DNA of 64,000 bases, from NCBI GenBank assembly GCA_965219455.1, contig OZ244744.1, positions 4,224,001 through 4,288,000 on the forward strand. Direction: 5' to 3'. Of this stretch, positions 4,359 through 55,682 are shown piece by piece. Source of the stretch: Candidatus Latescibacterota bacterium. GTDB lineage: Bacteria > Latescibacterota > UBA2968 > GCA-2709665. Position 1 is the first letter of the stretch. Every line of letters begins with the position of its first letter. Both the position numbers and the translations under genes were made by a program. The notes under the pieces were generated by a model. It saw nothing but the letters and a program-made list of their open reading frames with translations, was not told the origin of the DNA and made no database searches.

Positions 4359-5678
4359 CTACGGGTAGAGTCTTTTGGGCCCTCGATAGACGTACGTGAC
4401 TTCCCGGACGTTGTTGTATCCAAGCAGGATCATGAGCATTCGGGTGAGGCCAAAGCCGAATCCGCCGTGGGGCGGACATCCATATTTGAAAAAGTCCAGG
4501 TAGAACCGGAGCGGTTCTAAACTGAGACCTTTTTTTGCGGCTTGGGCAGCCAGAATTTCAGGGCGGTGTTCTCGCTGAGCGCCGGTGGTGAGTTCCAGGC
4601 CATTCCAAAGCAGGTCGAAGCTCTTTGTGACGGTAGGATCCTCTGGATACCTCATGTGATAGAACGGGCGGACGGATACGGGATAGTCGGTAAGGAAGAC
4701 GAATTCGTGACCGTATGTTTTTTGGATGTATTCGCACAGGATGCGCTCTCCCTGAGGGCACAGGTCGCCCTGTCTTTGTGGCGGGGGCGTGTAACCCAGT
4801 TCCGCTAGTCGGACGACGGCTTCTTCCATGGCGATTCGTGGGAAGGGATAAGCCGGAACGGTGACTTGACGGCCGAAGTGTTCGGCGATTGATTCGCCAT
4901 GGGATTTTTGCACGGCGAACAGTATGTGGCAGAGCCATTGTTCTTCAAAGACCATTAGATCCTCGTGGGAGCGGATCCAGGCAATTTCAACGTCGACGCT
5001 GGTGAATTCGGTGTCGTGGCGCGACGTGAACGAGGGGTTCGCTCTGAAGACGGGGCCAATTTCAAAGACTTTGTCGAAACCGGCAGCCATGGCCATCTGC
5101 TTGTAGAACTGGGGCGACTGAGCGAGGTAGGCTGTGGTGTCGAAATATGGAAGTTCAAAGAGTTCGGCGCCGGATTCGCTTGCGCTGCCCATGATTTTCG
5201 GGGTATGTATTTCGATGAATCCCTCTTGCTCCCAGAAGTTACGCATAGCGGCTTGGACGGTGGTCTGGATCTGGAAGAGCAGATGGTTCTCCGGTCGGCG
5301 CAGATCCAAATGTCGCCAGTCAAGCCTTGGTTCCAGACCGGGTGGATCCTCGCCAAATGGTTCGATAGGTAGTGGTGAGGCCGCCTTGTTTTCGATGTCA
5401 AGTTCGGCCAGTTGAATTTCGATGCCGCCGAGGCGGACGTTTGGATTCTTCACGACGCGGCCAGTGACTCGAACGGCGGATTCACGGGTAAGGGTGGAAA
5501 CTATGATTGCCAGGCCGGGATTCTGTTGTTTTTTGTGGACGACCTGGACCTTTCCCGTGGGATTGCGGAGAATGATGAATTGCATTTGTTTCTGGTCGCG
5601 AATGGTCTGTACCCATCCTCGAAGGGTGACGGTTTGTCCATTGTGATGACTGAGTCGGGGTATGGATATGTTTCTCAT
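4359..5678 (-). CDS. aspS: Aspartate--tRNA ligase, short archaeal-like type (probably non-discriminating)
   Basis: OB-fold start (LRGWVQTIRD), YLAQSPQFYKQ, motif 2 FRAN...RHDTEF, motif 3 PPHGGFGFGLTR. About 440 aa, without the bacterial GAD insertion. AAGGAG ribosome-binding site before ATG 5678. Confidence 0.92.
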   Translation of the reverse strand: MRNISIPRLSHHNGQTVTLRGWVQTIRDQKQMQFIILRNPTGKVQVVHKKQQNPGLAIIVSTLTRESAVRVTGRVVKNPNVRLGGIEIQLAELDIENKAASPLPIEPFGEDPPGLEPRLDWRHLDLRRPENHLLFQIQTTVQAAMRNFWEQEGFIEIHTPKIMGSASESGAELFELPYFDTTAYLAQSPQFYKQMAMAAGFDKVFEIGPVFRANPSFTSRHDTEFTSVDVEIAWIRSHEDLMVFEEQWLCHILFAVQKSHGESIAEHFGRQVTVPAYPFPRIAMEEAVVRLAELGYTPPPQRQGDLCPQGERILCEYIQKTYGHEFVFLTDYPVSVRPFYHMRYPEDPTVTKSFDLLWNGLELTTGAQREHRPEILAAQAAKKGLSLEPLRFYLDFFKYGCPPHGGFGFGLTRMLMILLGYNNVREVTYVYRGPKRLYP

Positions 5679-5722
5679 GTGATAATGCTCCTTTTTTAAG
5701 AGGTCTGAGTTTTCAGGCATGG

Positions 5723-5755
5723 AAAAACCGCCGCTGGTGTGCGACCAACGGCGGG
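5723..5755 (-). terminator. Intrinsic terminator (attenuator) upstream of aspS
   Basis: CCGCCGTTGGT-cgcac-ACCAGCGGCGG-TTTTT on the minus strand, 45 nt before the aspS start codon. Confidence 0.85.
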
Positions 5756-5775
5756 TTGTGTTTCAGAGTAAGTTT

Positions 5776-5916
5776 TCAGCCATATATCGGCCCGGCCCGC
5801 CGTTGGATAGGGTCATGGTGGTTATTATGGTGGTCGGGATTGACGTCCAGGCATACGGCTGGCGCGAGAGATTTCTGCGGGGTTGTGATGCGGAAGATAG
5901 AACAAGCCATGGTCAT
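5776..5916 (-). CDS. Putative attenuator leader peptide for aspS (46 aa, Asp/Asn/His cluster)
   Basis: AGGAG ribosome-binding site; MTMACSIFRITTPQKSLAPAVCLDVNPDHHNNHHDPIQRRAGPIYG*; contains an 11-nt perfect complement of the terminator 5' arm. Confidence 0.7.
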   Translation of the reverse strand: MTMACSIFRITTPQKSLAPAVCLDVNPDHHNNHHDPIQRRAGPIYG

Positions 5917-6077
5917 TGTATTGGTCTCCTGGTTCCGCACATCACCTATTGCCAACATTTACGAATTTAAGGAGTTTTCACGGGCGACACCGAAGCAATG
6001 CTCCGTTGGACGCCACCTTGAGTGTCATGCGCCCGCACTCAGAATACGTCAGAACACGCACAAGGTGCCGGGAAACC

Positions 6078-8526
6078 CTATTGCGCTTCGATGGCCGCCG
6101 TAACGATCTCGCCGTTCAGTATGACGTGAAGGCCGGGATCGAGCGGGTTGTTAAGCACGACGTCTAAATCACGCGCACGCGTGATGCTGGTCAGATCCGA
6201 TTCGGCCTCCTTCAGTGCCAATGAGAGCGCCTGATCATTTACGGTAAGTTGCAGCCGTTTCAGGGGTGCGCTGAGTGAGAGATTGGCGTTGCTCTTGTAA
6301 CGTCGGACCGCAGTGGCGATCTCAACCAGGAGGTTGCCATTTGTTTCGGCGCGTTCGTCTAAAAATCGCGGGTTCACGGACGGCCAGGTGGAGATGTGGA
6401 TGGATTCACCGTTCTCTGCGAACAGTCCAACGTAGATCTCTTCGGTTACGTAAGGCAGAAACGGCGCAAAGAGGTGGATGCAGGTTCGAAGCACGTGGCT
6501 GAGTGTATATTGCGCACCACCGGTTCCGATCCCGGTCTCGTCATACAGACGCCGCTTGGCCATTTCAAGGTAGTTGTCCGCCAGGTCTCGCCAGAAGAAG
6601 GTTTCGGTTTCACTCCTGGCGAGAGCGTATTGATAGTTTTGGAAAAAGCCGGTTGCCCGATCGATAAGGCGTTGTGTCCGCGCCAGGATCCAGCGGTCCG
6701 CGGGGGTCAGGAGTGGAGGTTCGACTGGAGTGCGGTATCCTTGTAGAAACCGTTCGCTGAAGCGGGCCACATTCCAGAGTTTGGTGACCAGTTTGTGACC
6801 GGCCTGGATTCTTTCTTCGCTGATTACCGTGTCTTTGCCGAATCCCGTTCCGGCCGCCCAATAACGCACGGCGTCGGCGGAATATTTCTCGATTATGTCT
6901 ATCGGCGCGGCCGGTCCGCCTCCTCGGCTCTTGCTGATTTTCCCCGTGCCTTCCGGAGCCAGGCCCCATCCGGAAATGCATATTTCCTTCCAGGGTATCT
7001 GTCCAAAATGGTGGTGAGATTTGACAATGGTGTAGAAAGCCCAGGTCCGAATGATTTCGTGTGACTGGGTGCGCATGGACATGGGGTAGACGTCCTGATA
7101 GAGCTCGTTGTCGCATAACCAACCTGCCGCGATTTGAGGACTGAGCGATGAAGTAGCCCAGGTGTCCATAACGTCCGTATCGGCTACCCAATCGTTGGCG
7201 CCGCAAGTACACCTTGCACGCGGGCAGGTTTCGAGCGGGTCCAATGGCAGTTCGGCTTCTGGCGCCACGGTGATCTTACCGCAGCCACCGCAATACCACA
7301 CCGGAAACGGGATGCCAAAATGGCGTTGGCGGGAGATACACCAGTCCCCAGTGCAGGTTTTCGATCCATTCAATGTAACGGGCTTTCATGTGCGGGGGAT
7401 GCCACCTGATATCTTCGCCCAGTTCGAGCCAACGGCTTTTGAAGTCAAGGACACGGATGAACCACTGCGGAGCGACGATGTATTCCACCGGCGTGTCGCA
7501 GCGATCGTGGACCCGAACGGACTGAGGTGCGGGCCGCCTGTCCACCATCAAGCCGCGTTCATCGAGTGTCTTCACGATCTGTCGTCTGGCTTCGGACACG
7601 GAAAGGCCTTCGAGAATGCCGGAACCCGCGGTCATCCTGCCGTTCCTGTCGATGGCGGAGACCAGCGGCAGGTTGTGTGAACGCCACCAGGCCACGTCCG
7701 CAGCGTCGCCGAAGGTGCAGCACATCACAGCGCCCGTGCCTGTTTCGGGATCCGCCCCTGTATCCTGCAGTACGGGCACATGATGGCCATAAAGGGGGAC
7801 TGAGACATTGCGGCCGATGAATGAACTATAGCGTTCGTCACTTGGATGGACGAAAATCGCCGCACATGCGGACAGAAGTTCCGGCCGGGTGGTGGCGATC
7901 GGCAGTGACATGCCCCCTTCAAGGTGGAAGTGCACGGTGACGAATTCACTCTCCCGTTCAATTTCGTTCAGTTCGGCCTGTGCGATTGCGGTTCCGCATT
8001 CCGGGCACCAGATAGCCGGCGCCTTTTTGCGGTAGACCAGTCCTTTGTCTAACAGGTCTATAAATGACTTCTGTGCAATGCGGCGGGCGGTGTCGCCCGC
8101 TGTGCGATAGGTATGTGACCAATCGACCGAAAGCCCCAGGCGAAGCCAGAGGTTCTCGTATTCGCGTTCAATGGCTTCACCGTGGTACATGCATTTTTCG
8201 ATAAACGCCTGACGGCCGAGTCCCGATGCGCTTGTTCCAAGGCGTTTTTCCACCAGGCGTTCGGTGGGGAGACCGTTGTCGTCATACCCCATCGGGTAGA
8301 AGACGCGCCGGCCGTTCATTCGCCAGAAGCGAGCCATGAAGTCGGCATGGCTATAGGAGTAGACGTGACCCATGTGGAGTTTTCCGGACACGGTCGCAGG
8401 AGGCGTGTCGATGGCGTACACGGGGCCTTCGGCCAGCCTTTCGAATTTGTAGATGTCCGACAGTCGCCAGCGCGCCTGAAGGCGAAGCTCTGTTTCCTGT
8501 GGGCGATATCGTTTGGATGAGGCCAT
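6078..8526 (-). CDS. valS: Valine--tRNA ligase, archaeal-like type 2; split by a +1 frameshift at about 7346-7349
   Basis: DTPPATVSGKLHMGH (HIGH motif), ATTRPELL, GTGAVMCCTFGD, DWCISRQR, DVMDTWATSS, KISKS. ORFs 7276..8553 and 6078..7373 join as NLHWDWCISRQR if one G is removed from TGGGGAC. Confidence 0.88.
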
Positions 8527-8791: not shown

Positions 8792-8827
8792 AAAAAAAAA
8801 CCGCCATCGAGTGGACTCGATGGCGGG
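8792..8827 (-). terminator. Intrinsic terminator (attenuator) upstream of the valS region
   Basis: CCGCCATCGAG-tcca-CTCGATGGCGG followed by 9 T on the minus strand. Confidence 0.88.
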
Positions 8828-8852: not shown

Positions 8853-8978
8853 CTATACCATAAGCCGCCATAGGGTCCTATGATTATTGGCCGAATTGAC
8901 ATCGTTTACAGGGCGTACGGCGTCGTCTACACTTCGCGGCAGCGTGAGGTTCAGGAACCGGTGGCTGTTGACGTTCAT
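8853..8978 (-). CDS. Putative attenuator leader peptide for valS (41 aa, Val/Asp/Asn-rich)
   Basis: MNVNSHRFLNLTLPRSVDDAVRPVNDVNSANNHRTLWRLMV*. GGACCCTATGGCGG in its 3' end pairs 12/14 with the terminator arm CCGCCATCGAGTCC. The ribosome-binding site is weak. Confidence 0.55.
   Translation of the reverse strand: MNVNSHRFLNLTLPRSVDDAVRPVNDVNSANNHRTLWRLMV

Positions 8979-55606: not shown

Positions 55607-55682
<76 letters not shown>

Follow-up and report, generated by a model that had tools for sequence, protein, structure and literature searches.

A putative leader-peptide attenuator with a conserved RAGP end upstream of an archaeal-type aspartyl-tRNA synthetase gene in Latescibacterota

Introduction

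Classical leader-peptide attenuators are found before aminoacyl-tRNA synthetase (aaRS) genes: the accessible part of PMC1262725 describes one at pheST in gamma-proteobacteria and predicts others at trpS and leuS in Streptomyces. Here, we describe a leader of this kind upstream of aspS2, a gene for an archaeal-type aspartyl-tRNA synthetase (AspRS) of a Candidatus Latescibacterota bacterium (assembly GCA_965219455.1). The analysis followed up a first-pass annotation of 64,000 nucleotides of contig OZ244744.1 (positions 4,224,001 to 4,288,000 of the forward strand; hereafter the window), which had proposed that the leader senses aspartate and asparagine. As far as the pheST, trpS and leuS attenuators are characterized in that part of the source, the aspS2 leader shares with them a short, apparently translated open reading frame (ORF), a run of cognate codons, mutually exclusive antiterminator and terminator structures and an aaRS target. 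Unlike them, it carries Asn and Asp codons, precedes a spare archaeal-type AspRS in a host from a candidate phylum, and has a conserved Arg-Ala-Gly-Pro (RAGP) end, the codons of which make up the antiterminator strand.

Control of asparagine formation by tRNA charging also has a counterpart. A 2012 study by Saad et al. is said to have found that a T-box controls how asparagine is formed on tRNA in Clostridium acetobutylicum. There, too, a shortage of charged tRNA(Asn) reportedly induces the route via a non-discriminating AspRS and the amidotransferase GatCAB. The sensor in C. acetobutylicum is reportedly a riboswitch that binds tRNA, whereas in the aspS2 leader, which gave no T-box match, it would be a ribosome on Asn and Asp codons.

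The RAGP end recalls arrest peptides of the RAGP/RAPP type, such as SecM, YwcI, ApdA and ApdP (PMC10951299, PMC10987492, PMC12992588). According to the available sections of these papers, the RAGP core of SecM holds the A-site Pro-tRNA with no peptide bond being formed (PMC10951299), RAGP is under-represented in bacterial proteomes (PMC12992588), and the neighbours named for RAPP-like small ORFs are sec, yidC, TonB, copper and thiol-folding genes (PMC10987492, PMC12992588). To the extent that these sections cover the known peptides, the aspS2 leader is like them in the position of the RAGP core near the C-terminus of an upstream small ORF, in its conservation at the amino-acid level and in the depletion of the core from the proteome. 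It is unlike them in lacking a signal peptide or membrane segment, in preceding a gene that is neither sec/yidC nor metal-related, and in its proposed output, which would be transcription termination; stalling itself is proposed here by analogy.

A second, archaeal-type AspRS (AspRS2) occurs in Deinococcus radiodurans and Thermus thermophilus, alongside a bacterial AspRS, asparaginyl-tRNA synthetase (AsnRS) and GatCAB, as the consulted excerpt of PMC4206432 reports. The Latescibacterota genome has a comparable set, of which GatB was the amidotransferase subunit found, and it additionally has an asnB-family gene. Leader-peptide control of AspRS2 is not mentioned in that excerpt. In agreement with the first-pass annotation, which knew of no well-characterized Asp/Asn leader-peptide attenuator on aspS, our literature search found none, though such a case might be among the RAPP-like small ORFs tabulated in the supplements to PMC12992588 and PMC10987492. 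The closest match was an unspecified predicted "tRNA synthetase leader" before aspS of Shewanella.

Results and discussion

Structure of the aspS2 leader

Coordinates are those of the window, and every feature of the leader lies on the minus strand. L and G numbers denote loci and genomes, respectively. The AGGAG ribosome-binding site (RBS), the 46-codon ORF and the cluster D-V-N-P-D-H-H-N-N-H-H-D that had been annotated were matched to the base. The AGGAG (5930–5926) is spaced 9 nucleotides (nt) from the leader ATG (5916–5914), and a GGAG is similarly spaced before an ATG-ACC start in L001–L004. The ORF (5916–5776) consists of 46 codons (5916–5779) and a TGA stop (5778–5776) and encodes a peptide ending in LDVNPDHHNNHHDPIQRRAGPIYG; the ORF listing extends the same frame to an upstream ATG (5776–5958). 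Codons 24–35 (5847–5812) constitute the control-codon cluster, with three Asp, three Asn, four His, one Val and one Pro codon. The codons for P-I-Q-R-R-A-G-P follow at 5811–5788, with Gly42 at 5793–5791 and Pro43 at 5790–5788, so that the peptide has the C-terminus P-I-Q-R-R-A-G-P-I-Y-G.

The 5' strand of the predicted antiterminator, CCAACGGCGGG (segment 2, 5806–5796), is located inside codons I37–A41. Its perfect complementarity to 5755–5745, claimed by the first-pass annotation, was recovered by an inverted-repeat search, in which this 11-nt, 100% complementary pair was the only one reported within 5700–5960. The partner strand (segment 3, 5755–5745) also appeared in the terminator scan and the pairing alignments, and would serve both as the antiterminator 3' strand and as the 5' arm of the terminator. 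The intrinsic terminator (5754–5723) has an 11-bp stem (5754–5744 with 5738–5728; 8 of 11 pairs G-C), a 5-nt loop and the run TTTTT (5727–5723). The elements follow the classical attenuator order: control codons first, segment 2 next and segment 3/4 last. The GC-rich hairpin and U run had been placed just before aspS; the hairpin held, while the start of the gene had to be corrected. It is most likely the ATG at 5678, behind an AAGGAG Shine–Dalgarno sequence (5693–5688) and 45 nt downstream of the U run, and not the ATG at 5720 that opens the longest frame.

Asn, Asp or His occupies 10 of the 12 cluster codons (binomial P ~3e-8, calculated with crude genome codon frequencies for one fixed 12-codon stretch and uncorrected for the number of such stretches), and the z-score of the whole-leader fold was only −2.3. 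The real argument against a chance origin is not either of these values but the conservation of the leader in relatives.

A 13-nt direct repeat (ATGSCTGAAAACT on the minus strand, 92% identical) was observed after the terminator (5708–5720) and at the end of the leader ORF (5771–5783). A similar sequence, TGCCTGAAAA, comes after the terminator in 10 of the 16 f2-type leader rows as well as in L002; L003 and L004 are without it.

Conservation of the leader with aspS2

An aspS2 orthologue (54–100% identity) was present in 19 of the 41 sampled genomes of the order, and all 19 were preceded by an N/D-rich small ORF and a terminator. Across a set of 168 genomes of the phylum, 28 contained an orthologue at a threshold of at least 51% identity. 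The first-pass annotation had staked its reading on the recurrence of the ORF in relatives, and alignment of the upstream regions bore it out: a D/N-rich ORF with RBS, antiterminator and terminator, ending in RAGP, precedes aspS2 in 25 of the 28 genomes. In G037 and G084, the leader end has decayed (RRWRPP and RRRRHP) with the N/D-rich ORF retained, and aspS2 itself is split or contains stop codons.

The motif was also searched beyond the phylum with the degenerate pattern (D/N)-P-I-(Q/R)-(Q/R)-R-A-G-P in one genome for each of 185,579 species. The scan gave 65 stretches, 20 of which were true leaders, that is, an N/D run followed by the motif, one to four further residues and a stop. Eighteen of these were from Latescibacterota or Latescibacteria, one from a genome labelled Gemmatimonadota bacterium and one from a genome labelled only "bacterium"; aspS2 was downstream of 19 of the 20. 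The remaining 45 stretches were inside long frames of unrelated, mostly GC-rich genomes. A shorter pattern applied to the 168 phylum genomes yielded true leaders in 25 genomes, all of families f1 and f2 (30 loci were inspected, six of them chance matches; matches in G152 and G158 of family f4 were outside this count). Two more genomes, with P-N-(Q/R)-R-R-A-G-P, came to light through a covariance model, and inspection upstream of the remaining orthologues added one, from another order, with A-I-R-R-R-A-G-P (the variants are in G080, G082 and G077).

Two further observations concern the integrity of the locus. In G028, an orphan leader of the aspS2 type with its terminator persists (L059, 1633–3942) where aspS2 is gone, with an IS605 OrfB/TnpB-type gene approximately 1.1 kb downstream. 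In L005, L014 and L074 (G030, G035 and G087), a palindromic, repeat-like insertion of about 75 nt separates the terminator from the aspS2 RBS; sister genomes are without it.

Control codons and the RAGP peptide

Peptides were compared among 25 distinct leaders. The 12 codons preceding the motif contained three to seven Asn, one to three Asp and zero to four His codons, while Asn and Asp make up 2.9% and 5.9%, respectively, of crude coding codons in the window genome. Judged by these counts, the dominant control codon in the relatives is Asn, not Asp, which refines the reading of an Asp/Asn-sensing leader. His codons were lineage-specific, being found in the window's own clade and two others, and the four of the window leader were not conserved. 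Queuosine sensing, considered because Asn, Asp and His all have NAY codons, was dropped since His is lineage-specific.

The eight motif positions read P, I, Q/R (6/19), R/Q (24/1), R, A, G and P, of which P, R, A, G and P were invariant in all 25 aligned leaders. All four synonymous codons were used for Ala (3, 3, 3 and 16 times) and for Gly (3, 19, 1 and 2 times), which indicates that selection acts on the peptide; the first Pro also used four. The residues after the last Pro varied (A, IYG, IYA, NGS, KCA, WHT, WFGS and AYA), and the G016 leader had no stop codon between RAGP and the terminator. Counted from the first in-frame Met, leaders of family f1 (L002, L003, L004, L007, L015 and L017) had 46 codons, whereas 14 of the 16 family-f2 tail rows had 29–32 and the other two, L009 and L019, 44–45. 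Since variation was confined to third positions and the RBS and length class were conserved, we infer that the leader ORF is translated. Its 46 residues in the window contain no hydrophobic segment of signal-peptide length, the longest hydrophobic stretch being seven residues.

Among the 24 orders in which its four residues can stand, RAGP was the least frequent in the crude proteome of the window genome (20 occurrences, approximately 58 expected), and RAPP and RGPP were likewise the rarest of their 12 permutations. Small ORFs with RAGP, RAPP or RGPP and a terminator gave 28 candidates in this genome after a hairpin filter. The aspS2 leader was the single attenuator-like case among them, so the combination of motif and attenuator does not appear to be a general design in this genome.

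Alternative RNA structures

Pairing was evaluated in an alignment of 24 sequences, from which L018 (G037) was excluded because its motif and terminator are degenerate and L013 because it is nearly identical to L008. For the 12 pairs of the antiterminator, 89.6% of 288 cells were paired, in contrast to 27.8–52.8% with the partner slid, and three pairs had changed on both sides. The 12 pairs of the terminator were paired in 92.0% of cells (29.6–52.1% when slid), with six pairs changed on both sides. The retention of pairing through compensatory changes is thus supported for both helices by the alignment, as would be expected of the covarying antiterminator and terminator stems that the first-pass annotation had in mind.

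In the window genome, the antiterminator duplex was predicted at −24.3 kcal/mol and the terminator hairpin at −20.9 kcal/mol. The minimum free energy (MFE) fold of the full leader contained the terminator and an upstream hairpin (5861–5835 with 5799–5777) that overlaps the first control codons. This predicted anti-antiterminator (1:2) hairpin (5861–5777) is composed of the helices 5861–5853/5785–5777, 5852–5847/5795–5790 and 5838–5835/5799–5796. When the 3' arm of the terminator was withheld, the antiterminator was the MFE structure in seven of the 15 sequences folded from the alignment (L001–L005, L007 and L015).

The aspS2 gene and its genome background

The target gene, aspS2 (5678–4359, minus strand), encodes 439 amino acids, in agreement with the short archaeal form of about 430–440. 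The annotation of an archaeal-type AspRS proved correct, as the protein, queried with one additional N-terminal residue, passed both NCBIfam equivalogs for aspartate–tRNA(Asn) ligase: NF003483 (481.7 bits, cut-off 353) and TIGR00458 aspS_nondisc (382.4 bits, cut-off 368.4). It failed the bacterial aspS and asnS models, the scores for bacterial aspS lying far under the cut-offs. By these models, the product is an archaeal-type AspRS of the non-discriminating type.

The same 5.84-Mb genome encodes a bacterial-type AspRS (frame of 613 amino acids), an AsnRS above cut-off and GatB, which makes aspS2 a spare AspRS gene. Its single tRNA(Asn) begins with a U1-A72 pair, and its single tRNA(Asp) with a G1-C72 pair. 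The first pair allows and the second prevents amidation by the bacterial amidotransferase, as stated in the available text of PMC1635274. GatB and the U1-A72 tRNA(Asn) are circumstantial evidence that AspRS2 may charge tRNA(Asn) as well as tRNA(Asp). An asnB-family match (395 bits) was also found, so aspS2 need not be the sole route to asparagine. In the 41 genomes of the order sample, the window genome included, asnA was not found. An asnB-family match over cut-off was present in 8 of 19 aspS2-positive and 7 of 22 aspS2-negative genomes, and 15 of the 41 had neither gene.

Proposed mechanism

The order of the elements and their conservation led us to hypothesize that aspS2 is controlled by a ribosome-mediated (leader-peptide) transcription attenuator, which we consider probable. 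The leader would very probably switch aspS2 on at low levels of charged tRNA(Asn) or tRNA(Asp), with induction through ribosome stalling in response to tRNA charging. Transcription would begin upstream of 5930, and a ribosome would translate the 46-codon leader. With Asn-tRNA(Asn) and Asp-tRNA(Asp) plentiful, it would pass the Asn/Asp run and reach the R-A-G-P end of the peptide. There it would occupy the antiterminator strand (5806–5796), so that the terminator hairpin (5754–5728) and U run could form and transcription would stop before aspS2. If either charged tRNA were scarce, the ribosome would stall earlier, within codons 24–34; segment 2 would then be free to pair with 5755–5745, the terminator would not form, and aspS2 would be transcribed. 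The additional AspRS2 would produce Asp-tRNA(Asp) and Asp-tRNA(Asn), the latter to be amidated by GatCAB, bypassing the need for free asparagine. Without free asparagine, AsnRS cannot charge tRNA(Asn), and the induced non-discriminating AspRS would let GatCAB make Asn-tRNA(Asn) from aspartate. The spare AspRS would thereby have a rationale, as a tRNA-dependent route that can be switched on when direct charging of tRNA(Asn) fails. Such a leader would go beyond textbook attenuation in its Asn/Asp specificity, its non-discriminating AspRS target and its occurrence in an uncultured candidate phylum.

The position at which the ribosome would mask segment 2 can be estimated from its footprint. The usual ribosome footprint extends about 15 nt past the first P-site base and about 12 nt behind it. 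On this basis, a ribosome with Asn31 in the A site would cover approximately 5841–5814 and leave segment 2 (5806–5796) free; with Gly42 in the P site it would cover approximately 5805–5778, including 10 of the 11 nt of segment 2; at the stop codon it would cover approximately 5793–5766, and segment 2 would no longer be masked. By this geometry, the Gly-Pro step and not the stop would mask the antiterminator strand. The R-R-A codons of the arrest motif are the antiterminator strand, and a ribosome arrested at Gly-Pro would therefore cover it. By analogy with SecM and YwcI, the P site of the stalled ribosome would hold the residue that precedes the last Pro. Points in favour of an arrest role are the depletion of RAGP from the proteome, the missing stop codon in the G016 leader and the coincidence of a decayed motif with a broken aspS2 in G037 and G084. 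Whether RAGP serves as a programmed arrest that parks the ribosome on segment 2 is, on this analogy and geometry, close to an even call, and we lean slightly towards doubt.

Taken one step further, the leader might be a hybrid of two regulatory principles for which no combination is known. The Asn/Asp run would act as a hungry-codon sensor, and after it would come a hard-wired RAGP arrest of the SecM type, whose R-R-A codons are the antiterminator strand. We put this forward tentatively, with somewhat less than even confidence. The RAGP arrest would then enforce termination and render the stop codon unneeded, and only an upstream stall on Asn or Asp codons would free the strand. If this is true, a known arrest core has been recruited for the default "off" state of an attenuator, RAPP-type arrest peptides also serve amino-acid-responsive transcription attenuation, and their uses extend beyond protein export and metal homeostasis.

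Alternative explanations

The most serious competitor is a plain classical attenuator without programmed arrest, in which R-R-A-G-P is kept for RNA pairing and the ribosome runs to the stop, as in trpL. We regard it as a real possibility that falls somewhat short of an even chance. In its favour, and at the same time against an arrest role of RAGP, the R-R-A codons are the antiterminator strand, so that RNA pairing constrains this part of the motif as well; RAGP is absent from paralogous attenuators of these loci, namely leader-2 and the first unit of each tandem pair (both described below); and most RAGP-like sequences tested in Escherichia coli and Bacillus subtilis did not stall ribosomes, according to the accessible part of PMC10987492. 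In family f2, the Gly and Pro codons moreover join a predicted local hairpin, yet over the 15 folded sequences they had no consistent pairing partner across groups. Pairing would also leave unexplained why all four Ala and Gly codons are used with no amino-acid change in 25 sequences, and why RAGP is depleted in the proteome. A run to the stop codon does not fit the geometry in family f1, where the stop lies four codons past the Pro and a ribosome there would leave segment 2 uncovered by the footprint given above, nor does it fit G016, which has no stop before the terminator. Alternatively, the peptide could be a ligand-sensing arrest peptide of the TnaC/SpeFL kind, in which free asparagine or aspartate in the exit tunnel strengthens the RAGP stall, and the stall rather than hungry codons sets termination. 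The stall site would mask the antiterminator strand in this case too, and the conservation of an N-P-I-(Q/R)-R-R-A-G-P block extends beyond the core. We nevertheless consider it very unlikely: the RAGP/RAPP arrests described in the available portions of the cited papers need no ligand, and the enrichment of Asn and Asp codons, which hungry-codon sensing predicts, would have no explanation.

Two other readings dispense with the leader peptide. An untranslated RNA element would make the ORF incidental, whether it acted as a riboswitch, sensed tRNA in the manner of a T-box or bound a protein. Most known aaRS leaders of Gram-positive bacteria are indeed T-boxes, going by the accessible text of PMC1262725. 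At the gathering score, however, Rfam matched nothing in the window save one tRNA, and at E up to 10 there was neither a T-box nor a known leader family within 5600–6200, the single weak match, on the terminator hairpin, being to a small RNA model (E = 0.84). Conservation furthermore extends to the ORF with its RBS and length class, and to the amino-acid motif, with synonymous variation, and we judge such an element highly improbable. Least probable of all, and barely credible to us, is that the hairpin is a mere terminator of the upstream gene valS2, with the small ORF and the complementary strand arising by chance. The hairpin does lie downstream of valS2 in the window genome, but family f2 has a methyltransferase gene in that place, with the same leader and terminator; the element also stays with aspS2 across genomes, and its pairing covaries.

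Several results weigh against control of aspS2 by tRNA charging through a ribosome-mediated attenuator. A promoter scan found no sigma-70-like site. Four of the 12 control codons in the window genome are His, which the attenuator model leaves unexplained. The aligned sequences cluster in about three groups of close relatives, which leaves few independent compensatory events, and shuffle controls inflate the support for pairing where sequences are related. In the MFE fold of the window leader, the predicted 1:2 hairpin occupies merely four of the 11 nt of segment 2, and in eight of the 15 relatives folded as truncated RNA the antiterminator was not the MFE structure. G079 has an aspS2 orthologue without a leader. 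Finally, the idea that aspS2 substitutes for asparagine synthetase was not borne out, since asnB-family matches show no clean complementarity with aspS2.

Neighbouring genes and further leaders

A covariance model built from the aspS2 leaders detected a weaker paralogous attenuator approximately 3 kb upstream of nearly every one of them. The copy in the window (leader-2; 8978–8792, minus strand, 29.3 bits) has a 41-codon ORF (8978–8853) that is rich in Asn (seven Asn, six Val) and ends in NDVNSANNHRTLWRLMV, without RAGP. Its antiterminator strand is at 8873–8865, its terminator at 8826–8801 and its U run at 8800–8792. Leader-2 precedes a 61-codon methyltransferase remnant and a second valS gene. 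The 61-codon ORF (8767–8582, minus strand) matched no Pfam family itself. Its resemblance is confined to the C-terminal end of a 305-amino-acid S-adenosylmethionine (SAM) methyltransferase, the one encoded ahead of the aspS2 leader in family f2, and it is probably a remnant from the insertion of valS2.

The second valS gene (valS2; 8526–6078, minus strand) lies directly upstream of the aspS2 leader and shares 31% identity with the other valS frame of the genome. An additional G in a GGGG run (7346–7349) breaks it into two frames, and its halves were matched in one frame in G009 and G010. Either a genuine frameshift or a homopolymer error in the assembly may account for the split. In family f2 (L059, 7154–4048, minus strand, and equivalents), the order is a paralogous leader, a glyoxalase-family gene, a gamma-glutamyltranspeptidase gene, the SAM methyltransferase gene and the aspS2 leader. 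The sole Rfam match at gathering score in the window is the tRNA gene at 55682–55610 (minus strand, 67.9 bits).

Tandem units of leader plus terminator precede aspS2 in L015, L016, L018, L174 and L176 (G020, G016, G037, G077 and G084). The first unit is Asn/Asp-rich and has no RAGP end, with C-termini such as IQWRDLVLP, RRDRMRF or QRRDRL. Behind small ORFs of relatives, matches of the covariance model also marked candidate attenuators in L154 (G081), L153 (G021) and L161 (G083). Among these candidates, a class I W/Y synthetase follows a small ORF with W-W-W, a thiamine pyrophosphate enzyme similar to acetolactate synthase (ilvB-like) follows a V/L/G-rich ORF ending in RERP, and a class II synthetase core that has an HGTP anticodon domain follows an ORF rich in H and T. 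Since further leaders precede aaRS and ilvB-like genes, leader-peptide attenuation seems, from these sequences, to be a common device in the lineage, and leader peptides before several aaRS genes should be useful for the annotation of its genomes.

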